Positions 9,884-64,000 of a stretch of 64,000 nt of DNA are shown one piece after another. Under the pieces are notes generated by a model. It was not told the origin of the DNA. It saw nothing but the letters and a program-made list of their open reading frames with translations, and searched no databases. Each line of letters begins with the position of its first letter. The first letter of the stretch is position 1. The translations under genes were made by a program, and so were the position numbers. The stretch spans positions 104,735 through 168,734 of the IMG/VR virus record IMGVR_UViG_3300025015_000010; one strand, 5' to 3'. The stretch comes from a virus.

Positions 9884-11029
9884 ATGTCTAAAGAACTGAT
9901 TACGCAGCTAGAAAGTCGGGTAGCTAGGGGGCTGATTAGTCGTAGAGATCGTGGACCGTTATCGATCTACAATTACACAGACACTTGTACATTTGATCGC
10001 GCCTGGGACGAGTACACGATGGCTGCTCGTGGCCTGATTGTTAACCAGGTAACTAAAAAGGTAGTGGCCAGGGGATTTAGTAAGTTTTTCAATTATGGTG
10101 AGAATCCCGATATCGATTATACAAATTTTGGTCAATTTGAAGTCACTGAGAAGCTTGACGGCAGTCTTGGCATTATGTATTGGGACGAGTTAACCCAAAT
10201 GTACCGGATTGCCACACGAGGCAGCTTCGAGAGTGATCAAGCCACCTGGGCAACGAATTGGTTGCACAAGGAATTTTCTAACAGAGTAGGCATTATTAAT
10301 GGCTTTGGTCAAGATCGAGGAATCACCCTAGTATTTGAGATCATTTATCCCGATAACCGTATTATCGTGGACTATCACGGTATTGAGGGGCTATTTTTGA
10401 TCGGTGTGATTGAAAATTCGACGGGACATTCCTTTGGCTATAATCGAGTAGTCAATTGGGGCGAAGATCACGGTTTTCAGGTAGTTAAATCGGTTCAAGT
10501 GACCAGTGTTCAAGAGCTTTTGGACTTAGCTTCTAAGCCTACAGGCAGGCCGACTGACGAGGAGGGTTGGGTGGTATTTTGGCCAAAAGCCCAATTGCGT
10601 GTTAAGATAAAGCGCGACGACTACATGCAACTGGCCAGGATTCTATCTAGGATGTCAGCCAGAGCAGTATTTGAGGCGGTTAGGGACGGTACTTTTGAGA
10701 ATATGATCAAGGATCTGCCCCCAGAGTTGGCTAATGTACCGAGATTGTTAGAAGACGAAGTCAGCGCGGCATTTGCAACTGTGCATGACAACGCTGTAGA
10801 CGCCCAGGATATTTTGTATGATCAGACAAAGAATAAACCTGAAATGTCCAGAAAGGACAAAGCACTGTTGATCCAAAGTGATTTACGGATTAAATGGTGC
10901 GCTTCGTACTTGTTTTCTATGCTGGATGGACAGGTTAATAATAAATGGCTGTGGAGTCAAGTTGAAGACAGGCTCAAAAAGATGGGCTATTTTATCCGCA
11001 GATTGCCTACCGAAGAGATTACGCCGTGA
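9884..11029 (+). CDS. T4 Rnl1-like RNA ligase
   Basis: ARGLI, KFFNYGE, TEKLDGSLG (motif I), ATRGSF, FEII, EGWVV, RVKIK. Confidence 0.9.
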   Translation: MSKELITQLESRVARGLISRRDRGPLSIYNYTDTCTFDRAWDEYTMAARGLIVNQVTKKVVARGFSKFFNYGENPDIDYTNFGQFEVTEKLDGSLGIMYWDELTQMYRIATRGSFESDQATWATNWLHKEFSNRVGIINGFGQDRGITLVFEIIYPDNRIIVDYHGIEGLFLIGVIENSTGHSFGYNRVVNWGEDHGFQVVKSVQVTSVQELLDLASKPTGRPTDEEGWVVFWPKAQLRVKIKRDDYMQLARILSRMSARAVFEAVRDGTFENMIKDLPPELANVPRLLEDEVSAAFATVHDNAVDAQDILYDQTKNKPEMSRKDKALLIQSDLRIKWCASYLFSMLDGQVNNKWLWSQVEDRLKKMGYFIRRLPTEEITP

Positions 11030-11187
11030 TTCGTCCAGGTAGCAAAGTAAAATACTTGCTAATTTCAGGTGAGCGCGGAGAAGGTACGGTTATCAAGCAC
11101 CAATACGGTAGTACGTGGTTTGTCACTAAGGAAAATGGCCAGACTGTTAGTATGCCAACTACGGCTTTTGAGGAGATTACGCCGTGA
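11026..11187 (+). CDS. 53-aa small beta-rich (SH3/KOW-like) protein not in the ORF track
   Basis: GTGA overlaps at both ends; MIRPGSKVKYLLISGERGEGTVIKHQYGSTWFVTKENGQTVSMPTTAFEEITP. Confidence 0.6.
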   Translation: MIRPGSKVKYLLISGERGEGTVIKHQYGSTWFVTKENGQTVSMPTTAFEEITP

Positions 11188-11911
11188 AATACCAGATATG
11201 GAAACGTTGGGAGTATGATCATGCAGATGATCCAACAGCTTGGAAGTTAGCTGATGACTATCAGTATTATACTTTAGAGCAAGCCAATGCAGAGGCACGT
11301 AATCTTAGACGTAGGTTGACTGGTCGTATAGTTGAAGTCAAGGAGCAGACTATGTCTAACGACCGTTTCATCGAAGCCTATGCACAACTACGCAGAAATC
11401 TTCGAGATTTGATGTTTAAAAATGGAGTTCAATCTAATCCAGGATTCGGAGACGATGAGATTGTTGCCTGTATGGCCGAAATTATTCGAAAAGCGGGTAA
11501 TCACAAGAAAGGAAAGTCATGAGATTTCTGTGCAGATATGCTATGCCAGGCTCGCCCAAGACCGAATGGGCAACTGTAAATTCAGACACAAAAGAATCAG
11601 CCGTGATGGATTTTCACCATGTATGTGATCGGGGCATGGTATATACTCACTACCTAAACGCTGAGAAGACTCGAAAAGAAAATATCACATTCGCCTGCGT
11701 AGCAGTGAAAGCAGAATTAGACCTAGGCGACGGTGAAGAGTTTATAGCCAGAAATTATTTTTCTAAGATATGGCGTAGCGGAGGCGTGAAGCGCCCAGAG
11801 CACGATGTTACTTTAGCAGAGATCACCGAGAAACTAGGCTACACGTTTGAGCCAGAAACACTCTTAGAGAAGGGCTGGGACGAAGAATCCGAATCTTGGG
11901 ACTAAAAGTTC

Positions 11912-11939
11912 TTGACTCCATAATAATTTATGGTATATT
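11912..11939 (+). promoter_or_regulatory. sigma70-like promoter giving a probably leaderless cca mRNA
   Basis: TTGACT-N16-TATATT with extended TG; ATG 6 nt downstream; no SD. Confidence 0.7.
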
Positions 11940-11945
11940 ACTCAT

Positions 11946-13196
11946 ATGACGACTAAGCTATATAAAGTTGGTGGAGCCGTACGGGATACGCTTCTCGGTA
12001 GAACGCCCAAGGACATCGACTATGTTCTTGTGGGCGCTACCTATGAGCAAGCCCAAGCTATGTATGGTGATCCCGTAGGAGCCACTTTCCCGGTATTTTT
12101 CGATGCCAATGGCAATGAAGTCGCTCTTGCTCGCAAGGAAACTAAGACCGGTGCAGGCCATACAGGATTTGTCTGCGACTTCGGGCCAGACGTAACGATT
12201 GAGCAAGATTTAGCTCGCCGTGACTTTACAATTAATGCTATTGCTATGGATTCGGACGGAAAGTACACCGACCCATTTGGCGGTATCAATGATCTGAAGG
12301 CTAAGGTGCTTCGTGCTGTGGGTCCAGCGTTCGCCGAAGATCCACTCCGTGTTTACAGGCTCGCTAGGTTTGCAGCTACGCTGGAATTTAGTATGGTTTA
12401 CGAGACGGCAGAAATGGCTAAATCCCTGGTTCAAGAAATCAGTTCACTGTCTGGCGAACGAGTTGCAGCCGAGATGCTCAAGACGTTTTTCAAGTCTGGT
12501 ATCAAGCCGTCCGTATTTTTCAGAACGCTGCTTGATCTTGGAGTTCTGCACGTGCATTTTCCCGAGGTTCAGGCCCTTGTAGATGTTCCGGCCGGGCCAA
12601 AGGTTCATCACCAAGAAGGTAGCGCGTTTGAGCACACAATGCTGGTTCTGGATGAGATTCAGTGCAGCGATCCAGTATCCAGGTTCGGCGCTTTGGTGCA
12701 TGATCTGGGTAAGGGAGTGACACCTAAGAGCGAACTTCCTAAGCACTACGGCCATGATTCCAGGGTTGAACTGGTTGACGCCCTGTGTGACCGGCTGAAG
12801 CTGCCTGCTGAGTATCTGCACTTTGGTCGTTTGGCCATGAGTCAGCACATGCGGGCACATGAAGTCAAGAAAATGTCCACGAAGAAGCTTGTGCAGTTTG
12901 TTCATCAGGTTTCTAAGCCTACCACGGACATGTACAGGCTGATTGAAATCGTGGAAGCTGATGGCCGTGGACGTCGGCCTAGTAGTGAGGATAAGACAAC
13001 TGGCGAGCATATCCTGAAGGTGTACGCAGCCATCAAGAGCGTGAAGCCAGTGGAAGTTATTCAGGCTGCTGAGAAGTCCAGAGCAGAACGCGCTGTCAGG
13101 ACCGGAATCAAGCCTGAAAAGCTTCTTGGTAAGCATATTGGTGAACTTATTTACATAGCGGAAATTCAGGCTGTCAATAAAGTACTGGAGGTTTGA
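11946..13196 (+). CDS. cca: CCA-adding tRNA nucleotidyltransferase with HD domain
   Basis: VGGAVRD, DIDYV, DLARRDFTINAIA, EDPLRVYR, HH.EG...EHT, HDLGKG. Confidence 0.92.
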   Translation: MTTKLYKVGGAVRDTLLGRTPKDIDYVLVGATYEQAQAMYGDPVGATFPVFFDANGNEVALARKETKTGAGHTGFVCDFGPDVTIEQDLARRDFTINAIAMDSDGKYTDPFGGINDLKAKVLRAVGPAFAEDPLRVYRLARFAATLEFSMVYETAEMAKSLVQEISSLSGERVAAEMLKTFFKSGIKPSVFFRTLLDLGVLHVHFPEVQALVDVPAGPKVHHQEGSAFEHTMLVLDEIQCSDPVSRFGALVHDLGKGVTPKSELPKHYGHDSRVELVDALCDRLKLPAEYLHFGRLAMSQHMRAHEVKKMSTKKLVQFVHQVSKPTTDMYRLIEIVEADGRGRRPSSEDKTTGEHILKVYAAIKSVKPVEVIQAAEKSRAERAVRTGIKPEKLLGKHIGELIYIAEIQAVNKVLEV

Positions 13197-52693: not shown

Positions 52694-53695
52694 TCATGCC
52701 CTCTCCAAATAAGCATTGCTCACGATTTTTAGCTTCAGTCTGCTATTCAACTCCGATTCGAATCGATTCTCAATAGGCTGAATTACGACGCCCTCGCGTA
52801 TGTGATCCGCGCCAACAATAAGAGATTTTCCGTTTGACAGCTTTTCAATATCTACTTCTGAGTATGGACCCTTGTAAACTACCTGAACCCACGGCATGCC
52901 GTGAATTATTCCAGCGGCATTCATAGCTAGTTCTGGAGAAACCCATGTCCCGTCTGGTGTTCGTACATCAAACCCTGCAAAACGTACCTCGCCCGGTTTA
53001 CATCCGTATTTCAAATCTTGAACCTGCCCGTAAACTTCGCCGTACAGTACATGGCCTGGATTAGCTTCGCAAAAAGACTTAATAGCTGGTGTAACTTCCA
53101 AGGCGCGATGCCAGATTGTGTTGCCAGTTTCCATTTTCCACTCACCATGTGATCCCACGAACATACGCAGTGTGCCAGTCTTATCAGAGGCATAAACATA
53201 TCTTGCTGACGCACCATGGATCTTTTCGGTAGCCACGACAAGTTCGTCTGGCCTGAATAGGTGCTTATAGCGATACCAGTTTTCAACATCGTACTTGGGC
53301 GCGATTACGCCCGATGGTCCAGGCCCAGTTTCGCCCCGGTGGAAGTTCACGGGTGGTTCGTAACGTTCGACGCCGAGAGCTTCTAGAGCATTTTGACCCT
53401 CAGCCATGCCTTCAGGTGACTTAACTAGCAGTCCTTGTGAGAATATGCCACGTAACTTTTTTACTTTAATTCGTTCCCGTGCTCTAGGCTTATCCTGGAT
53501 TATGAGAAACTCAAATTCTGGCCTGTCTGTAGGCACTGTATAGTCAGGTGGAATGTATGCGGCCAAGTCTCCATCCTGCCAGTCGGCAGAACGGACACAA
53601 ACTGTATAGCCAAATACTCGAACGATACTTAGAGTATCTGCGTTCGGGTGAGGCTCTTTACGTATTCGAATGACGGGTATTTCGTGAGTGCTCAC
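52694..53695 (-). CDS. RNA ligase, DRB0094 family
   Basis: HPNADTL, LRGIFSQGL, TEKIHG, GEVYG, FDV, REGVV, LKIVSNAYL. Confidence 0.9.
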   Translation of the reverse strand: MSTHEIPVIRIRKEPHPNADTLSIVRVFGYTVCVRSADWQDGDLAAYIPPDYTVPTDRPEFEFLIIQDKPRARERIKVKKLRGIFSQGLLVKSPEGMAEGQNALEALGVERYEPPVNFHRGETGPGPSGVIAPKYDVENWYRYKHLFRPDELVVATEKIHGASARYVYASDKTGTLRMFVGSHGEWKMETGNTIWHRALEVTPAIKSFCEANPGHVLYGEVYGQVQDLKYGCKPGEVRFAGFDVRTPDGTWVSPELAMNAAGIIHGMPWVQVVYKGPYSEVDIEKLSNGKSLIVGADHIREGVVIQPIENRFESELNSRLKLKIVSNAYLERA

Positions 53696-56740: not shown

Positions 56741-57338
56741 CGGGTCTTGATCTATTACTGTTATCTACTCCCCTAGCTACGCCATCCACCTCGTTCCATT
56801 CTCTGCCCAATTATTTGATCTATTACTATGTCTCGCTGGAGAAGGACTACTCGGCCAACGCCTTGGGTTCTATTCCCTACCTAGCTATTGATCTACTGCT
56901 ACCCCAGCATTCGTCCACTATGGGGGCTACCATGACACTATTCCATTCTCTGCCTAGCTCTTAATCTATTGCTACCATCGAACGCACCGTACTCTTCAAG
57001 CACGGTGGGATATTCCATTCTCTGCCTAGCTCTTAATCTATTGCTACGCCTGCTGTACGCGGCAGATGTGGTTGTCCGCCTCATTCCATTCTCTGCCTGA
57101 GTCTTGATCTATTACTGCGCAAGAAGACACCGGGGCGGATAATATTGCTGTAATCGTTCCATTCTCTGCCCGAGTCTTGATCTATTACTGCGTCAACGTG
57201 GGAGGGAAGAAATAATGGCACTCCATGCGTTCCATTCTCTGCCCGAGTCTTGATCTATTACTGCGGCCCCGGAACAAGCGATCAGTATCTGGCCGGTCGA
57301 GAGTTCCATTCTCTGCCCGAGTCTTGATCTATTACTGC
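56741..57338 (-). CRISPR. CRISPR array: 8 full repeats + 1 partial, 8 spacers
   Basis: 36-nt repeat, minus-strand consensus GCAGTAATAGATCAAGACTCGGGCAGAGAATGGAAC; plus-strand starts at 57303, 57229, 57156, 57083, 57012, 56940, 56867, 56793 (37 nt) and partial 56741; spacers 38, 37, 37, 35, 36, 37, 37, 31 nt; degeneration increases away from the cas gene. Confidence 0.97.
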
Positions 57339-59026
57339 CCCGCCTCAACTAAATCCTTTATTCCTAACTTGTTACATGGCTTCTTGCGAGGGCTTGGCTT
57401 TTCTATCTTAAGACTGCCGTTTAGTTCCTTGTCCCTTAGCTCTGGCAATCGCTCTGTAACGAACCTCTCGCATAGAATTCTTACAGAAGCTTCTGTCCAG
57501 TTGCATTGGTGGGCACACTTGGGGCAAATAAACAAGCCCTGTCGTCGAGATTCTTTATAATCTCGATGGTCCAGTTCAGTCAGATTTTTCTTGTAGCATA
57601 GAAATTTACATTCGGGACACGTGTCTGTAATAGCCATTCCAGATTGAATTAGTTCCCCACAACCTATAGCCTTTCCTTTGTAGTCCAAATCAAAAGCCAG
57701 TCGTCCATAGTCCCACGTAGATAATACCCGATTAGCTTGTCTTATTGCCCTTTGTGCCGGGGCACTCAGACCTTTGCAAAGATTTTTTCTGGCTTTCAAA
57801 AGCCAGGCTTTTCCCTCGCCAGGGTCGTGAAAAACCATTCTTGCTCCAGCGTCACCCGCCCAATCAACTAGCTGTTTAGACGTGGCATGAGCTACTGATC
57901 GCTCATCTGGAGCGGATGGACAACGCCGTCCAGCAGACTGAGCGTGCTTTGCTCTTTCTACCCACCGTTCGTGTGGGATCATATGTTCCATAGTTGGATA
58001 TCTGCGTACTTCAACAACCCCTTTACCCTTGTCCCACAATGCCGCTGTCGCATAAGGGTAAATATCCGGTACTACAAACAACAATCGATTCCACCCTAAA
58101 GTTGTTGGAGCATTAAATTTAAATGATATCCTTGCTTGCCAACGTCGTGGGGAGATTTCTTGAAGGCGTACATCGCCATAAAAAGCCCCAGAATCTAAGT
58201 ATTCTTTCGCATAATCCTGCTTCACAACAAGGGGTAAACGTAACCAACCCTTTGCATATTTTGTGATAGGGCCAGCTGCTTTATTGGTCTGTTGATAAGT
58301 TGACCAAGGTGTAACCACGCTATTGCCTTCATGGCCAGTCTGCACTGCAAGACACCAATGTCTCGCATTTTCAGGATCGCGTAGAATTCTGGCATGAATG
58401 GAGCCAGTAAATAACAGTTCTCTGTTGTGTTTTCGTGGGTTCGCTGCGGACGCCGCTTTTGCTAGTCTACTTCTTGCCCCGTTTAGTCGATGTCCTTGTA
58501 GACTAGTAGACTGGCTTATAGATTCTAGGGTATCCAACCATACTTTTTCAGCTTCAAGTAAACAAATACACGGCGAAGGGAAAGCAGGCGCACCTGTCAT
58601 TCGGCTACCAGATGGAATACGTTGCCCTTCAGCTTCAATTTTTTGTTGCCACTCCCACCGTTTCGTAGCTTGCTTATGGCCTGTTATGATTGAAGCGACT
58701 CGAAAAAACATGGACTCGGCCAGAGACGACGGTAAGTTTTCAGGCACAGGCGCAACAAGGCGTATAGCTGAGTAGATCGTTTGAGTTCCTCCAGGCATGT
58801 CAAGTAATTTTGCAGATTTTACCGTCCGTGCATTCTCAGGTCCAGTTCTGTAGTTAATTGGATCATCGATATGTTCTGATAGGTAATTCAAGGCATTCGT
58901 AATGCCTCGCTGCCATAAATCTGCCAAGTCTTCTAGCCCTCGACGAGCACGACGATCTACCCGAATACCAAAGGCTGGAGCGCGAACAAGGATATCACCG
59001 GCCTCAAAGTCTTTACGCTTTCCCAT
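57332..59026 (-). CDS. cas12: TnpB/Cas12-like type V effector (564 aa) with apparently inactivated RuvC
   Basis: Abuts the array; GGAGG SD before ATG 59026; C-terminal RuvC-like layout LLFVVPDI / AHATSKQLVDWA / MVFHDP / WDYGRLAFDLDYKG / TCPEC...FICPKC / NWTEASVRIL. Confidence 0.75.
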   Translation of the reverse strand: MGKRKDFEAGDILVRAPAFGIRVDRRARRGLEDLADLWQRGITNALNYLSEHIDDPINYRTGPENARTVKSAKLLDMPGGTQTIYSAIRLVAPVPENLPSSLAESMFFRVASIITGHKQATKRWEWQQKIEAEGQRIPSGSRMTGAPAFPSPCICLLEAEKVWLDTLESISQSTSLQGHRLNGARSRLAKAASAANPRKHNRELLFTGSIHARILRDPENARHWCLAVQTGHEGNSVVTPWSTYQQTNKAAGPITKYAKGWLRLPLVVKQDYAKEYLDSGAFYGDVRLQEISPRRWQARISFKFNAPTTLGWNRLLFVVPDIYPYATAALWDKGKGVVEVRRYPTMEHMIPHERWVERAKHAQSAGRRCPSAPDERSVAHATSKQLVDWAGDAGARMVFHDPGEGKAWLLKARKNLCKGLSAPAQRAIRQANRVLSTWDYGRLAFDLDYKGKAIGCGELIQSGMAITDTCPECKFLCYKKNLTELDHRDYKESRRQGLFICPKCAHQCNWTEASVRILCERFVTERLPELRDKELNGSLKIEKPSPRKKPCNKLGIKDLVEAGQ

Positions 59027-59028
59027 TC

Positions 59029-59547
59029 CTACCTCCGGTTCACCACTTGAAATGTCTCTCCACAATTAGGACAGTGAACCTTAAAACTATTAGTAACAAT
59101 CCGTTTTTCTAGTGGTTGCTCAGTTGGGGCAAGCGCTGGCAGAAATACATCATCCAGTTCTCTGGGCTTCATATCAATAGGCTTCACTTTTACATTTGCA
59201 TATTCCCCATTACTAGTGGGGCGTCGCACTTGGTACTCCTGGTCTAATACTGCGTCGCTTACGCCCCCGCGTAACATTCGGCCTACGGCTCTTAACGCAC
59301 GGTCAGGCGAGCCCCAGGCGAGAGATGCAAACCGAGGATTAGCCGCGAGAGAGATAAGACGATCTGCACGAGATCTAGTTAAGCCAATTTCCTTGAGAAA
59401 ACGGTCATAAATTGGCAGAACTTGCTGTTGCACTCGACCCAGTAACTTCCCATATGCAATAAGATCCGTTGTGAGATTTACATTCAATGTTTGCCATGCG
59501 GCTAATGCCTCTTCTAAACTGAGATTACTTTCTTTGACTGTGCTCAT
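59029..59547 (-). CDS. DUF3102-like helical/HTH protein with C-terminal CxxC knuckle, coupled to the cas12-like gene
   Basis: LIAYGKLL..V......YDRFLKEIGLTRSRADRLISLA; VHCPNCGETF; stop 2 nt before the next ATG. Confidence 0.6.
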   Translation of the reverse strand: MSTVKESNLSLEEALAAWQTLNVNLTTDLIAYGKLLGRVQQQVLPIYDRFLKEIGLTRSRADRLISLAANPRFASLAWGSPDRALRAVGRMLRGGVSDAVLDQEYQVRRPTSNGEYANVKVKPIDMKPRELDDVFLPALAPTEQPLEKRIVTNSFKVHCPNCGETFQVVNRR

Positions 59548-59582
59548 GTCCGCTCGCTTTCTGCCATTGAGGCATAAAATAT

Positions 59583-59745
59583 ATAACTGGCCCGGAAAAC
59601 TGCTTGCTCGTGACACTGTCTCGGCAGCGAGCATAGATACGGGTCGTGAGTGCCGTTATCCGCTGAGCGTAACCAGATCGGTCCAGCGGCACCCCGGCTC
59701 ACGCGGTGGAACGCCGCGCATTTTTGTTCTTTCCGGGCCAGTTAT
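59583..59745 (-). ncRNA. 163-nt structured RNA (candidate tracr/scaffold RNA)
   Basis: 16-bp perfect closing stem 59583-59598/59730-59745; internal stems tgctcg/cgagca, gtgag/ctcac, ccgctg/cagcgg, cgcgg/ccgcg; starts at the predicted TSS. Confidence 0.65.
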
Positions 59746-59754
59746 CTGCTAACT

Positions 59755-59783
59755 AGCATACACCTACCAAACAACAAAGTCAA
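59755..59783 (-). promoter_or_regulatory. sigma70-like promoter of the ncRNA-DUF3102-cas12-array unit
   Basis: TTGACT-N17-TATGCT. Confidence 0.8.
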
Positions 59784-60796
59784 CAACTTTCTTTTGACAA
59801 AATCCAACCAGCTTTTATCATATCAGCCAACACGGCATAACAGACGTAAGCCCGGCCTGTACGAGACAGAGCATGAAACCTGTAATCAGTCACTAAAGCA
59901 TCATACATATCTCGCTGACTTTCAGGCAGGCTGTCTCTGGCCGCTTGAAACTTTGATGCCTTCTGTACAACTGGCTCGACTTCAAATGTCTTCACAGTCT
60001 TGGGCTCTTTTTGATGACTTATCCTTACTTCTGGAAAATACTTATACTTTTTTCTGAGTTTTAGTGGCGGAATAACTATGCCTGTCTTGATACAGTAGCT
60101 CCGTAAACGTGCGACCGACTCTCCAACCTCTCTGGCCACGTGGGCGACGGGCTTATTCCAGAGTAAATCTGTTAGTACCTCTCTATCTGGCCAGGCGCCC
60201 TCCTCCAAAGTTGTCAGCCATCGTGTTTGGCGCGATGCTATAGGAATATCCGAGGTGTGACAGTAACTTTTCAAGGTATTTATTGATATGCCGAGAGACT
60301 TTGCTACGTGCTTGGGCGACCGCTCTTGAAGCATCTTTGTCAGAGTAGACGCCTCGGGCCATTCTATTTTTACCCTGTTCCAGTGCTCAATACCAGCTAG
60401 CGTTATTCGCTTTTCGCTCTTAGAATTAGGCGAGGCGACCTTGGGCTTCTTGTCTCGTTTCTTCGCGCTTGGCTTACGCTCTTGTTCAACCTTTCTTGCA
60501 TAGGGCGTGGCTAGAACCAAGTTACCAATATCGATATTTGTCTTATTACGGTCTATATAGCTGACGTTCTCGTCTCTACTCAAATACCTGCCTATGTCAT
60601 TTTCCATCACAAGTACGGCCCAGTAAACCATACCAGAGTTATCAAGGGCTCGCGGATGTTCTGGATAATATGCCGCTATCGAGCCCTTAAATTTTTCAGG
60701 CTTTAACTTCGACAAGTCATGTACAGTTAGGTCGGTTTCGCTGACATACTCCCCGGAATAAATTCCGGGGCTTGCGGTCGCTGGTCCCATCGTCAT
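59780..60796 (-). CDS. Degenerate HNH-like N-terminus plus repeated HTH motifs
   Basis: HPRA..GMVY..VLVME..IGRYL...ENV.YIDRNK.N...NL; VAKSLGISINTL; VAREVGES; true start uncertain. Confidence 0.55.
   Translation of the reverse strand: MTMGPATASPGIYSGEYVSETDLTVHDLSKLKPEKFKGSIAAYYPEHPRALDNSGMVYWAVLVMENDIGRYLSRDENVSYIDRNKTNIDIGNLVLATPYARKVEQERKPSAKKRDKKPKVASPNSKSEKRITLAGIEHWNRVKIEWPEASTLTKMLQERSPKHVAKSLGISINTLKSYCHTSDIPIASRQTRWLTTLEEGAWPDREVLTDLLWNKPVAHVAREVGESVARLRSYCIKTGIVIPPLKLRKKYKYFPEVRISHQKEPKTVKTFEVEPVVQKASKFQAARDSLPESQRDMYDALVTDYRFHALSRTGRAYVCYAVLADMIKAGWILSKESC
60742..60795 (-). mobile_element. IS200/IS605-type right-end remnant
   Basis: CAAGCCCCGGAATTTATTCCGGGGAGTATGTCA: hairpin followed by GTCA; 30-nt arm identical to the 49221 palindrome. 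Confidence 0.6.
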
Positions 60797-60803
60797 CTAC
60801 ACC

Positions 60804-63725
60804 TCAAACATAAGGGTCATTGGCCGTGTTATTTCTACGTTGCCAGTCGTTTCGTTCGTTCACTATCCGCTCATCTCGCTTTAAAGCTGCCTTGGCTAGG
60901 GCCGTACTTGCAGACGGGTCGGAAATAATGTCTGCTAAGAACGAATTCAAAAGATTGATTCTTAAGGTGTAATAGTCGGAATCATCCATAAACTCTTACC
61001 TTGTACGGGTGCAGCAGCCCTAATAATATTGGCCCAAATGTGCCTCCAGTCGGGTCCATCTCGCCTTTCAGTGTTCCAGACGTACTAACACCGTAAAAAC
61101 TGGCCATAATGCTGTCTTCAGGAAAATTAATTAGTAGCTCAACGTCTGCAAAATTCCAATGCAAGTCGATACTTCCATCTGAGCAGGGACCAATTTTGGG
61201 TATACGCGGCACTACCTTCAGATCATTCAAAGCTACACTGTTAAGACTTCTTAAAAACGCGATTGCTCTGTTCCAAGTTACTTGTTCAACTGACTTAAAA
61301 TCTTCTACAGCGATAGTCAATATCCTCTTGGACCTTTCGATGACATCTTCTAAGTCATTTGTTATATGACCGCAGCCCAAGCAGCCTATTCCTGACAAAG
61401 AAAAGTATGTGTCTGTTGATTGGCACTTCAAGCACGGCCCGCTAGTATAGGATGGATTGACCCTAGGCGGTCTCGAATAATGTTCGTGGAAAAATCCCAT
61501 ACCCATATTAAGTTTTACCTTTCTTTCGTCGAGGCTTTATACCCGAAAGTAAGAGTTTCGCCCGCCTTATCAGCCGCTTCTGCCAACTTACCGAGGTCTA
61601 TGTCAGTAAACAGTCCGACTGGAGCGCTGACTAGTGTTTGGCCATTAGACATTCTAGATATTGAAGCCGATATAGGAACGCCATGCAAGATGTCTGAAAT
61701 ATAGCCGCATGAGGGCGGACCCGGCTGCCATGGATCACGATTTAACTCTTGTCGCAAAGGCCAAAACCAAAGTAGCATTAGCTTGTCTCCTTACTAAAGA
61801 TCGAATCAAACTTTACTTTCCAACGTTCTTTAAACTCAAGTCCATAGCACTCAAATATGGCCTCTTCCAATCTGGACCGAACTGTTTTAGGCTTCCAGCC
61901 AGCAGTTAAGGCATCTGAAACAAAGTGCATCCAAGACGGCATTAGGCCATGTTTCTCGCACTGAATGAATAAATCTGGCAAAGGCAATCCACAGGTATCA
62001 TACATTCTGAACACACCCGCTATGACCGTTTTGCCGTCTTCGGTCTTGCCAATTATTTTGAATTTGGGTTCGGCCATTTTAATCGCTAACAGTAGGAGCT
62101 AGATGCTTCTTGATAACCCTGACAGCGCTGTCTACTGTATCGGCCTTGCCTATAAGAGCGTGGGTATCGTCGTGTCCCGGTATGTCCGCTCCTGTGAACA
62201 GACTAATATCGTAAAGATACAAGTCTTCGGCACTTTTTACACTCCATACGATGTAATTGTCCAAGTTTTCTGGCTCGATAGTTACGATGATCTCACCGAA
62301 ACGCTTGTTGTAGGTTATCTGGTACCCTTTGCCCAATGAATCGTGCAGCGCGACAAGAGTCTGTTGGATATTCTTACTACTAGGCTTGTCTATCATACTG
62401 GCTCTGTGCCCTCCAACCAACGAACCTTCTTTCCATTACGTCTTGCATAAGCGACTTCGTTTTTCGTACTGTCCCCAAGGTAGCCTCCGACGTTCAACAC
62501 TAAGATTTCGTCCGCCAAGTCAATCTTACGCAGATGAAGCTGGTCTAACTCACCTCCAGTCGGTTTGTCATCAGAACGAGCGCCGCTGTGAGAAAGGACA
62601 ATACGGCCAGCCAGTGTTTCGCTTAAGTATGTCGCCCGCTCTGTGTATCTATAGTCTTGCGATAGGTCTCCAATGCTTGTTTTAATCTTTTGCCTTCTGT
62701 ACTGTTACCAACGGCTGAGCACACAAAAATATCCGCTGCCTCTGAGAGCCTGTTTGCAGCTACTCCACGTGCCTCGTAGAAGTCCCTAATCGAGATATAG
62801 GCCGAAACGGCTTCATGAATCTCATCAATTGTTCCGTGCATGATAGCCTTGCACAGAACTACTTCGCGGTCTCGTAATTTAGGCCGCGGATGAGAATGAT
62901 CAATCATAGCTCTCGGTTATTTTCATAATAAGGGTCACGGACGATGTAATCTCTGTGTTCTCTATTTTTGCGGACACCTGTCTCATCTCTACTCCAGACA
63001 ACTTAAATGAGCCTGGTCTACTCTGCAAACAAGCCGACACAGGTAGACTTAGTACAAACTTACCTTCAGCTAAATTAGCCAATATGTCTATGGGAGTATC
63101 CGGTAAAGCCACAACTTGAAATCCCTCTAGCTTGTATTGACCAGACATTAAGAAACGTTGACCCGTTAAGCCATCACAAAGATTATCCCAGAAACTGGTG
63201 GCAAAGAAATCTGTACCAGGCACCTGAGTGTCGTAAAAATACTGCTGAGTTTCTAGCAAGCTGTCTCCGGTTTTTTCAATCCTCGAACTATTCGGCATAG
63301 GCCGAAGCTATTCTAGCCTCAGTTTTCTTAATACGGAGAATGATATCATTTGTATAATCGGCTGGCCTTTCCCCGTATTGCCCGAAACCGAGTTCCTTCA
63401 TGCGATTGTGTTGCCAGCTAGAAACCAACCGATCCATCTGCTCCCTGCCATCTCCACGAATCCGAGTTACTGGCACTGAATCGCCCATCTTCAGTGCTGG
63501 CTTGCCAAAGCATGTGGTTTCTTCAACATCTGGCAAAGGGTAAGCAGATACTTCAGCCCACGTATTTAAGGATTTGCGGACCTTGGCCAGTTCGTTTTCC
63601 AGCCGTCGCAGTGTCCTTGTAGAGTTGAGCACAGAAAGCGCCCGCTTTGCTAAAGGTAACTCAGCGTCCGATTCTTTGATGCTCCCGCCGTTAACGGCGG
63701 GATTCTGGTTATCTAACTCGCGCAT
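60804..63725 (-). other. Block of hypothetical ORFs (60804-60989, 60982-61506, 61515-61778, 61778-62077, 62079-~62396, 62623-62907, 62900-63298, 63288-63725)
   Basis: Co-oriented and coupled; 61778-62077 has VFRMYDTCGLP, resembling an AlaRS-like helical fragment. Confidence 0.6.
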
Positions 63726-64000
63726 AGCGCTCGTTCCTTCCCAGCATAGGGTCCACCAATATGCCCCAACGATACCACACTGAGGATATCGCTACGGGTG
63801 CCACTCACTACCTTGGCACCGCGTCTTCCAATGTTAAATGCCGCGTTTGCGTCGCGATGCTCCTTGTGATTGCATCTCGAACACAGGTACTTTTTACCCT
63901 TTGGTTTGTGGATCTTCCCGCACTTACAACATTCTTGACTCGTATACGCTGGGTCAACGAATATGACGGGTACGCCGCGCAAGGCAGCTTTGTACATAAT
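63713..64000 (-). CDS. tnpB: TnpB (IS200/IS605 RNA-guided nuclease), C-terminal part; gene runs off the window
   Basis: YKA...GVPVIFVDPAYTSQECCKCG...YLCSRCNHKEHRDANAAFNI with intact RuvC-III Asp. Confidence 0.9.
   Translation of the reverse strand: MMYKAALRGVPVIFVDPAYTSQECCKCGKIHKPKGKKYLCSRCNHKEHRDANAAFNIGRRGAKVVSGTRSDILSVVSLGHIGGPYAGKERALCAS

Follow-up and report, generated by a model that had tools for sequence, protein, structure and literature searches.

A 169-kb groundwater phage (168,734 bp, GC 44.4%) from the project PRJNA268031 probably encodes a new minimal RNA-guided targeting system. We give even chances to a more precise reading, namely a minimal type V-like phage locus devoid of adaptation genes, whose very rare and diverged TnpB/Cas12 effector most likely binds its target without cleaving it. 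All the elements listed in the initial annotation were found in place within the window (i.e., the whole stretch of 64,000 nt that was analysed), where the minus strand reads, in this order, a promoter-like motif, a 163-nt closed-stem RNA, a 172-aa partner, a 564-aa effector and a CRISPR array. These features, along with an upstream neighbour and a candidate anti-repeat, are as follows:

59780..60796, minus strand: neighbouring gene (338 aa) with an HNH endonuclease domain and an HTH (PHROG HNH families, E 1e-7)
59835..59879, minus strand: candidate anti-repeat of 45 nt, able to pair with 32 nt of the 36-nt repeat over its full length (positions 1-36), leaving a 10-nt bulge
59755..59783, minus strand: sigma-70-like promoter motif TTGACT-17-TATGCT, 9 of 12 positions matched
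59583..59745, minus strand: multi-branched RNA of 163 nt with a closing stem of ~16 bp, next to a U-rich tract (59582-59570)
59029..59547, minus strand: partner protein (172 aa), with a helical N-terminal part that includes an HTH-like segment and a C-terminal SF..CPxCGE motif
57332..59026, minus strand: effector P0003 (564 aa), with a predicted TnpB/Cas12 fold, non-canonical RuvC motifs and an intact zinc ribbon
56741..57338, minus strand: CRISPR array of nine 36-nt repeats and eight spacers of 31-38 nt

The TAG stop of the partner is separated by 2 nt from the ATG of the effector, which is itself preceded by a GGAGG located 8 nt upstream, while the TAA stop of the effector falls inside the first repeat (R1) of the array. 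The Pfam models of Cas1, Cas2 and Cas4 matched nowhere in the 168,734-bp genome, which extends to the whole phage the absence of cas1, cas2 and cas4 previously noted for 64 kb. The models for tnsB, tnsC and tniQ (PF00665, PF05621 and PF06527) were also without any match in the 169-kb genome, which rules out a CAST identity. The 338-aa HNH neighbour, probably a homing-type endonuclease, is mentioned as context only.

According to our profile and model comparisons, the effector is a TnpB/Cas12-fold protein, i.e., a single large type V-like effector with an inserted zinc ribbon/TNB. It was matched by none of the Pfam, NCBIfam and PHROG models, and PF07282 and PF01385 (TNB, OrfB) did not recognize it even at E 10. 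Elsewhere in the genome, PF07282 detects four other genes, and the phage has at least four genuine TnpB genes of its own. When the two-member effector family was compared to a TnpB alignment with hhalign, the two were matched over residues 270-525 with a probability of 96.2% (E 2.3e-9). The ESM Atlas model of the effector is similar to TnpB and Cas12f1-TNB clusters, with TM scores of 0.59-0.64 by query length (~400 residues) and 0.69-0.80 by hit. Moreover, an AF2 model of the RuvC/Zn-ribbon domain (residues 262-545, pLDDT 74.8) matches AsCas12f in Foldseek (E 1e-8) and Cas12k, Cas12f, TnpB and Cas12m in VIA (Z 12-14), Cas12g being also among the Foldseek/VIA matches; the full-length AF2 model, computed from a two-sequence alignment, had a pLDDT of 36 and was set aside. 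Hence, hhalign, AF2 combined with Foldseek, and VIA all point to a TnpB/Cas12f/Cas12k-type fold and, along with the ESM Atlas, they support the original description of a CRISPR locus that is carried by a phage, lacks adaptation genes and has a TnpB/Cas12-like effector. No described subtype matches by sequence, in line with the view that the arrangement is not a recognised one. Finally, the zinc ribbon (CxxC...CxxC) is complete in the effector (C470, C473, C501, C504), and its four cysteines are invariant in the relative described below.

The effector is very rare. In 1.84 billion proteins, searched exhaustively, there was one relative (38% identity, with long invariant blocks retained), encoded on a 7.4-kb contig from a distantly related phage (hereafter L008), whereas a word-indexed homologue search returned only the effector itself, and a search of viral, metagenome and genome contigs with the family alignment yielded no related locus. 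On 17 contigs, which come from several samples, the effector sequence is exactly the same. In L008, the layout is retained, with a promoter at the equivalent place (TTGACA-17-TACAAT), a closed structured RNA of ~175 nt at the analogous position, the partner and the effector, to which is added, inside the operon, an ORF for a ribosomal-S15-like protein; no CRISPR array or repeat-like motif was found within this short contig. The gene order is thus shared with another phage from promoter to effector, but not as far as the array. The initial annotation had also considered that homologues never lying next to arrays would speak against the proposal: one member of the family is adjacent to an array and the other is not, on a contig of 7.4 kb, and the link of the effector family to arrays is observed at one locus.

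The canonical RuvC D-E-D triad is not kept in the effector. In the alignments from which catalytic residues were assigned (~20% identity, two family members only), the gapless MAFFT domain alignment places V319, H400 and T511 on the columns of the RuvC-I Asp, the RuvC-II Glu and the RuvC-III Asp, respectively, the RuvC-III position being Thr511 in the effector and Ala in the relative. Beside the canonical positions, however, stand acidic residues common to both members: Asp321 (two residues after V319), Asp401 and Glu512 (Asp in the relative). The term "nuclease-dead" used at first is therefore appropriate with regard to the replacement of the RuvC-II Glu by His400 and of the RuvC-III Asp by Thr511/Ala, but too strong with regard to these conserved neighbours, which allow for a rearranged site. 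Because both members carry replacements at two of the three canonical RuvC positions, we consider binding without cleavage as most likely, and non-cleaving Cas12/TnpB relatives borne by MGEs have precedents (PMC11656645, PMC10691335).

Alternatively, the same locus might encode an active nuclease whose RuvC site is rearranged (D321, D401 and/or H400, E512) and with which the phage would cleave the DNA of its host or rival mobile elements, like CasPhi, Cas-lambda and Cas12p. This is possible, though clearly short of an even chance. Most of the phage-borne type V systems described are nucleases, and the conservation of D321, D401 and E512, one beside each substituted position in both members, is compatible with a DNA-cutting activity. 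In addition, hhalign sets Asp401 on the catalytic Glu and, if a one-residue insertion is allowed, the Y-A-D of the relative faces the H-A-D of TnpB, while TnpB/Cas12 proteins with rearranged RuvC-II and RuvC-III motifs have been described that are probably still active, some of these rearrangements being specific to viruses (PMC10691335). What argues against an active nuclease is that the gapless alignment leaves Val, His and Thr/Ala on the three catalytic columns, and that the two members disagree at RuvC-III.

The partner gene lies directly upstream of the effector gene both in the window and in L008, where its product is 33% identical; a third homologue (73% identical), on an 873-bp contig, is immediately followed by a cut-off ORF of 39 aa. 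This conservation of a small partner gene with the effector is in line with the idea of a dedicated accessory protein. Its affiliation, in contrast, has to be revised: neither Pfam, PHROGs, NCBIfam nor the PDB provided a family match, and the former "DUF3102-like" label finds no echo in Pfam, since PF11300 matched none of the three partner homologues at E <= 10 and the single trace of DUF3102 is an ESM Atlas feature match of score 0.89, ranked 29th, with a cluster where 30% of the members have this domain. Likewise, the "HTH/Zn-knuckle" description is to be taken as a reading: besides the HTH-like segment, the partner has a single conserved CxxC (within the conserved SF..CPxCGE motif) and no HMM match. 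The predicted complex of effector and partner scored 0.00, which counts neither for nor against binding.

Among known systems, Cas12m (type V-M) resembles the phage locus in its size (~600 aa), its association with MGEs, its lack of adaptation genes and its short array, and it matches the effector domain model with a VIA Z of 12.4, any sequence relation being undetectable. Cas12m is mostly plasmid-borne and, to our knowledge, has neither a conserved 170-aa partner nor a long upstream structured RNA. The RuvC site of Cas12m has lost its activity progressively, and the protein silences its targets by binding rather than cleaving them (PMC11656645, PMC10691335). Cas12k (type V-K), the RuvC of which is naturally inactive, is, tied with Cas12f, the best structural match to the effector RuvC/TNB domain (Z 14.2, rmsd 3.1, 179 residues). 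The TniQ of type V-K systems is small, about as large as the 172-aa partner. Cas12k has a long tracrRNA and the ribosomal protein S15 as a subunit, while its partner TniQ is a Zn-finger protein (PMC9798831). This S15 subunit parallels the S15-like protein encoded in L008, but Cas12k differs by its TnsB, TnsC and TniQ, all absent from the phage genome, by the lack of sequence similarity and by the very short arrays of type V-K, the phage array being longer with its eight spacers. Cas12f and TnpB share the fold and the size class of the effector, yet they combine an omega-RNA and transposon ends with the D-E-D triad, instead of a CRISPR array and a lost triad. The TldR and dCas12f-sigmaE systems, which are RNA-guided transcription factors, are reportedly chromosomal, with a single or few guides, and are said to be coupled to flagellin genes, ABC-transporter genes or a sigma factor. 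They derive from TnpB/Cas12f, have a dead RuvC and act together with a dedicated partner or on target promoters (10.1101/2023.11.30.569447, PMC13472631), while the present locus is phage-borne, its array is of the classical type (36/37 nt) and its partner belongs to no known family. Finally, CasPhi (Cas12j), Cas-lambda (Cas12n) and Cas12p are compact type V effectors also encoded by phages without adaptation modules, but they are active nucleases with a canonical RuvC (700-800 aa, or ~530 aa with a host thioredoxin) and show no sequence relation to the effector.

A bolder proposal can be formulated, which we find rather doubtful: the locus would represent an undescribed, so far phage-only type V subtype, with a Cas12k-like pseudonuclease without a transposon, acting as a programmable multi-guide repressor within an RNP that would include the dedicated HTH/Zn partner of ~170 aa, a tracr-like RNA that is long and structured, and an S15-type subunit. 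The latter RNA-binding subunit would be locus-encoded in one lineage and borrowed from the host in the phage studied here.

The array is far above chance (TRF score 218). Its 36-nt repeat consensus begins with GCAGTAATAGATC and finishes with GAGAATGGAAC; R1-R3 are identical, R4-R8 differ by 2-13 changes and R9 amounts to only the first ~20 nt. Three further metagenome contigs carry the array unchanged, while a fourth shows a 21-bp deletion at the junction of R7 and spacer 7, and the copies compared display no spacer turnover; this, along with the decay of the distal repeats, counts against the reading preferred here. The GC content of the spacers (49-66%, mean 57%) is above that of the phage genome (44.4%) and spacers 4 and 7 have a strong 3-nt GC periodicity; hence, we infer that the spacers originate from the protein-coding DNA of a GC-richer foreign genome. 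A uniform antisense orientation of the spacers was ruled out by an analysis of frame and GC3, which indicates mixed strands. No self-match was found in the phage's own genome and no target in the L008 contig, nor in viral contigs (24-mers of spacers 1-3 and wobble-masked spacers 4 and 7), nor in phage and plasmid records when the entire array was used in blastn (E <= 1). A search for the repeat pattern in genome, viral and metagenome collections returned no other array, and thus no host array of the same repeat.

Upstream of the genes, the promoter motif is unexceptional and weak on its own, with 10 equally good sites in the region versus 7.2 expected. The 176-nt stretch 59760-59585 folds with an MFE of -70.9 kcal/mol (z -3.3 vs. 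shuffles), and the 163-nt RNA could exist as a small RNA in its own right or form the structured 5' leader of the operon. This RNA belongs to no Rfam family; its membership of a family of stem-closed or Y-RNA-like RNAs within this genome was ruled out by sequence, no paralogue being present. It was also thought to carry an anti-repeat, but its complementarity to the repeat does not rise above background: the patches of the proposed site (59640-59620) are not colinear with the repeat, and their summed complementarity is equalled by 28% of the genomic windows. Another site, 59879-59835, lies ~90 nt upstream of the closed-stem RNA, within the last codons of the 338-aa ORF, and its predicted duplex with the repeat (-31.9 kcal/mol) ranks second among all the sites of the 169-kb genome, a result equalled by 4 of 1000 shuffled repeats. 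However, as energies of -29.6 or better occur at 14 other sites in the genome, the pairing is only suggestive of a full-length anti-repeat.

Could the promoter-proximal structured RNA be the true guide (omega-RNA- or sgRNA-like, as for TldR and TnpB), with the array being secondary or decaying? The array-less L008, which has a promoter, an RNA and a partner at the same places, as well as an S15-like RNA-binding protein in its operon, would fit such a scheme, and so would the distal decay of the array without turnover. We nevertheless deem it improbable: the three effector-proximal repeats are perfect, the array is fused to the stop codon of the effector and the L008 contig is short. Furthermore, the RNAs of the window and of L008 share no alignable sequence, RNAalifold being uninformative and covariation not demonstrable with two sequences, and we know of no TnpB or TldR guide located 5' of an upstream partner, the known ones being 3' of the gene. 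Even less probable is a degenerating type V relic without present function, for although R5-R9 are degenerate, one population has lost 21 bp of array, the adaptation module is absent and catalytic residues are altered, both ORFs are intact, R1-R3 are perfect, the effector is unchanged across its 17 contigs, and the effector-partner pair is kept in another phage (38%/33% identity) with its invariant blocks and four Zn ligands.

Under the preferred reading, that of a minimal locus binding without cleavage, one minus-strand transcript starting at ~59750 would comprise the structured RNA, the partner and the effector and continue into the array, because no leader or terminator lies between the effector gene and repeat 1. 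Processing of the pre-crRNA would then release repeat-spacer guides, with which the 564-aa protein would be loaded, and a tracr-like RNA (the candidate anti-repeat and/or the closed-stem RNA) may also be part of the RNP. Directed to a GC-richer foreign genome, be it that of the host, a plasmid or a rival phage, the complex would block transcription or replication of its target through stable RNA-guided binding, as do Cas12m, Cas12k, TldR and dCas12f, with the 172-aa partner serving as a co-subunit or an output module.

If true, this would amount to another independent exaptation of TnpB to a CRISPR effector, both phage-borne and compact (564 aa), accompanied by a conserved accessory protein that belongs to no known family. 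S15 was regarded as peculiar to Cas12k transposons (PMC9798831), and a second, transposon-free Cas12 lineage with S15 would suggest that this protein more broadly helps to stabilise the guide-RNA scaffolds of type V systems. An effector of 564 aa that takes many guides and is naturally non-cleaving would be of practical interest for CRISPRi-type tools and would show a means by which phages silence the genes of hosts or rivals. Some 50 independent origins of type V and dozens of type V families in phages are already on record, so that one more rare variant is expected rather than shocking, and the effector family may already be present, unnamed, in published type V surveys.

All the elements that the initial annotation had listed on the minus strand of 56741–59783 are present, while its interpretation of the locus as a non-cleaving, RNA-guided silencer or regulator with a dedicated accessory protein stands in part only. 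The operon reads as follows:

minus strand, upstream of the 163-nt RNA: promoter-like motif TTGACT-17-TATGCT (9 of 12 positions matched; weak on its own)
minus strand, between this motif and the partner gene: 163-nt RNA with a closing stem of ~16 bp (z −3.3), then a U-rich tract
59547–59029, minus strand: partner ORF, 172 aa, its stop 2 nt before the effector ATG
59026–57332, minus strand: effector ORF, 564 aa, its TAA stop inside repeat 1 of the array

The tight spacing of the two ORFs is as first described, with GGAGG 8 nt upstream of the effector ATG. The absence of cas1, cas2 and cas4, initially claimed for 64 kb, extends to the whole phage record (168,734 bp; IMG/VR completeness estimate 77%), in which models of the three proteins have no match. 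Phage-type genes in the window encode a helicase, a methyltransferase, a CCA-adding enzyme and an RNA ligase, and the locus, with an identical effector sequence, is found again on 17 contigs, which come from several groundwater metagenome samples.

The effector matches nothing in Pfam, NCBIfam or PHROGs, and phmmer against the PDB yields only a marginal hit to the C-terminus of Cas12g (E 0.008). An exhaustive phmmer search of 1.84 billion representatives recovered, besides the query, a single relative, P0004 (532 aa, 38% identity), encoded on a 7.4-kb contig, L008. Judging from three lines of model and profile evidence, it is a member of the TnpB/Cas12 superfamily, as had been proposed. First, the ESM Atlas's own model (pLDDT 0.67), an independent line, aligns with TnpB/Cas12f1-TNB clusters over ~400 residues (TM 0.59–0.64 by query length, 0.69–0.80 by hit). 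Second, when the two-member alignment is compared with 24 TnpBs by hhalign, the probability is 96.2% (E 2.3e-9, residues 270–525). Third, an AF2 model of residues 262–545 (pLDDT 74.8, pTM 0.70), which, having TnpB rows in its alignment, does not count as independent of the hhalign comparison, matches AsCas12f (Foldseek E 1e-8) and reaches VIA Z values of 12–14 with Cas12k, Cas12f, TnpB, Cas12m and Cas12g; these being tied within about 2, they do not allow a subtype assignment.

Whether the protein is nuclease-dead, as initially stated, is less clear-cut. In the MAFFT domain alignment, the catalytic columns of TnpB are occupied by V319 (RuvC-I Asp), H400 (RuvC-II Glu) and T511 (RuvC-III Asp; Ala in P0004), and the effector fails the canonical D-E-D test, while all four Zn-ribbon cysteines are kept. 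On this comparison of two sequences, we see a roughly even chance that the effector binds without canonical cleavage. However, a conserved acidic residue adjoins each substituted column, so that an active nuclease with a rearranged RuvC site is a real possibility, if short of a probable one. D321 directly follows strand beta-1 (AF2 domain-model residues 53–59), and were it catalytic, the loop leading to beta-2 would have two residues fewer than its TnpB counterpart; D401 comes next after H400 and is itself aligned with the catalytic Glu by hhalign; E512 corresponds to Asp in P0004, whose local RuvC-III motif, given a one-residue insertion, is Y-A-D versus H-A-D in TnpB. Moreover, a TnpB/Cas12 census documents whole branches with relocated RuvC-II or RuvC-III residues and probably retained activity, some of them virus-specific, as well as fully inactivated branches (PMC10691335).

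The eight-spacer array is unambiguous, nine direct repeats of 36 nt alternating with spacers of 31–38 nt, and it has no leader, since the effector TAA sits inside repeat 1. Repeats 1–3 (gene-proximal) are identical to each other, repeats 4–8 carry 2, 8, 8, 11 and 13 changes, respectively, and only the first ~20 nt of repeat 9 are left. Three other contigs bear the same array; in a fourth, L004, a metagenome variant of the same phage, 21 bp spanning the end of repeat 7 and the beginning of spacer 7 are deleted (L004:5050–5060, window ~56850–56880), the array being otherwise identical. There is no sign of ongoing spacer acquisition across these copies. The spacers are richer in GC than the phage (mean 57%, range 49–66%, vs. 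44.4%), spacers 4 and 7 show a near-perfect 3-nt GC periodicity, and none matches the phage's own genome, all of which argues for coding DNA of a GC-richer genome as their likely source. That they are antisense to mRNA is unsupported, the strand differing from spacer to spacer. Searches of viral contigs, phage records, plasmid records and L008 turned up no protospacer, and no other array with this repeat came up in genome, viral or metagenome collections. Inside the partner gene, 20 nt at 59237–59256 resemble the 5′ part of the repeat in repeat orientation (17/20), probably by chance.

The repeat has essentially no structure of its own, as would suit a tracr-type partner RNA. Complementarity between the 163-nt RNA and the repeat does not exceed background, and the anti-repeat patches first pointed out are ruled out, as they are not colinear with the repeat. 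A whole-genome scan for pairing with the repeat returned a candidate:

59879–59835, minus strand: candidate anti-repeat, 45 nt

It pairs end to end with repeat nt 1–36 (32 pairs, 10-nt bulge, −31.9 kcal/mol), with five G-U pairs that require both RNAs to be transcribed from the minus strand. Among all sites of the 169-kb genome, it comes second in rank and first in number of pairs, and only 4 of 1000 shuffled repeats equal it. We regard it as a candidate only, because 14 other genomic sites reach −29.6 or better and because it falls inside the final codons of the HNH/HTH gene, on the upstream side of the promoter-like motif. A near-consensus plus-strand promoter (59794–59821, TTGACA-16-TATCAT, 11 of 12 positions), back to back with the operon's own motif, is aimed antisense into this HNH gene and across the candidate.

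The partner had been described as DUF3102-like with a Zn-knuckle, and neither label is clearly supported: it has no family match in Pfam, PHROG, NCBIfam or the PDB, the single trace of DUF3102 being a feature-space lead (rank 29, score 0.89), and with only one CxxC conserved, it shows no clear knuckle with all four ligands. Among ~15 billion proteins, it has three homologues, counting itself: one (73% identity) on an 873-bp contig, with a cut-off ORF directly after, and one (192 aa, 33% identity) on L008. The latter contig (56% GC) shares four proteins with the window's phage and is thus a distant phage relative. Its gene order partly reproduces that of our locus: a promoter (consensus TTGACA-17-TACAAT), a closed, multi-branched RNA of ~175 nt (z −2.3), the partner gene, two small ORFs and the effector gene, but no array or repeat-like motif in its 7.4 kb. 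The second small ORF matches ribosomal protein S15 (PF00312; E 6.8e-10, 39.4 bits, Pfam cut-off 31):

L008:1119–1292, plus strand: S15-like ORF, 57 aa, between the partner and effector genes

In the Cas12k recruitment complex, S15 is a genuine subunit and sits wedged between Cas12k and the tracrRNA (PMC9798831); by analogy, this hints that the RNP of this family might include a large structured RNA with an S15-type protein bound to it. No S15 homologue was found in the window's phage.

Functionally, Cas12m (MGE-borne, adaptation-less, silencing without cutting) and Cas12k (a pseudonuclease with a long tracrRNA and S15) are the closest systems, followed by TldR and dCas12f-sigmaE. Structurally, the effector is indistinguishable from Cas12f, Cas12k and TnpB, but by sequence it belongs to none of these groups, in line with the initial view that no described subtype fits. 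A CAST is ruled out, as no Tn7 genes were found in the phage genome. What stands out is the extreme rarity of the effector family, the partner conserved with it wherever the neighbourhood is readable, the conserved operon head of promoter and structured RNA, and, in the sister locus, the presence of an S15-like gene. Dozens of type V-related families are reportedly listed in a survey of virus-encoded systems (Cell, 2022). Given these and the ~50 independent type V origins documented (PMC10691335), a new rare variant is to be expected. Coming from a heavily mined groundwater project, the effector family may already figure, unnamed, in such survey lists.

Elsewhere in the phage, two RNA ligases and a CCA-adding tRNA nucleotidyltransferase form an RNA-repair-type gene cluster (window 9884–13196 and 52694–53695), which suggests a heavy investment in RNA metabolism. 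Two genes upstream of the locus, a 174-aa ORF (60982–61506, minus strand) has a weak match (E 0.044 at protein level, 15.7 bits when the genome was scanned) to the Cas12f1-like TNB zinc-ribbon model; it could be a piece of a TnpB or else a zinc ribbon of unrelated origin. Also in the phage genome (G000:C1) are at least four bona fide TnpB genes:

G000:C1 67858–69015, TnpB gene, before the window start
G000:C1 83428–84663, TnpB gene, before the window start
G000:C1 88501–89673, TnpB gene, before the window start
G000:C1 168564–168731 (window 63830–63997), TnpB gene

One of these TnpBs (385 aa) has, among the matches listed, at least 120 relatives at 57–71% identity, the closest being mostly unnamed metagenome proteins; those listed under an organism name are all cyanobacterial (Nostoc, Tolypothrix, Phormidesmis and others, ~58–63% identity), which hints at a possible cyanobacterial host for this groundwater-metagenome phage.
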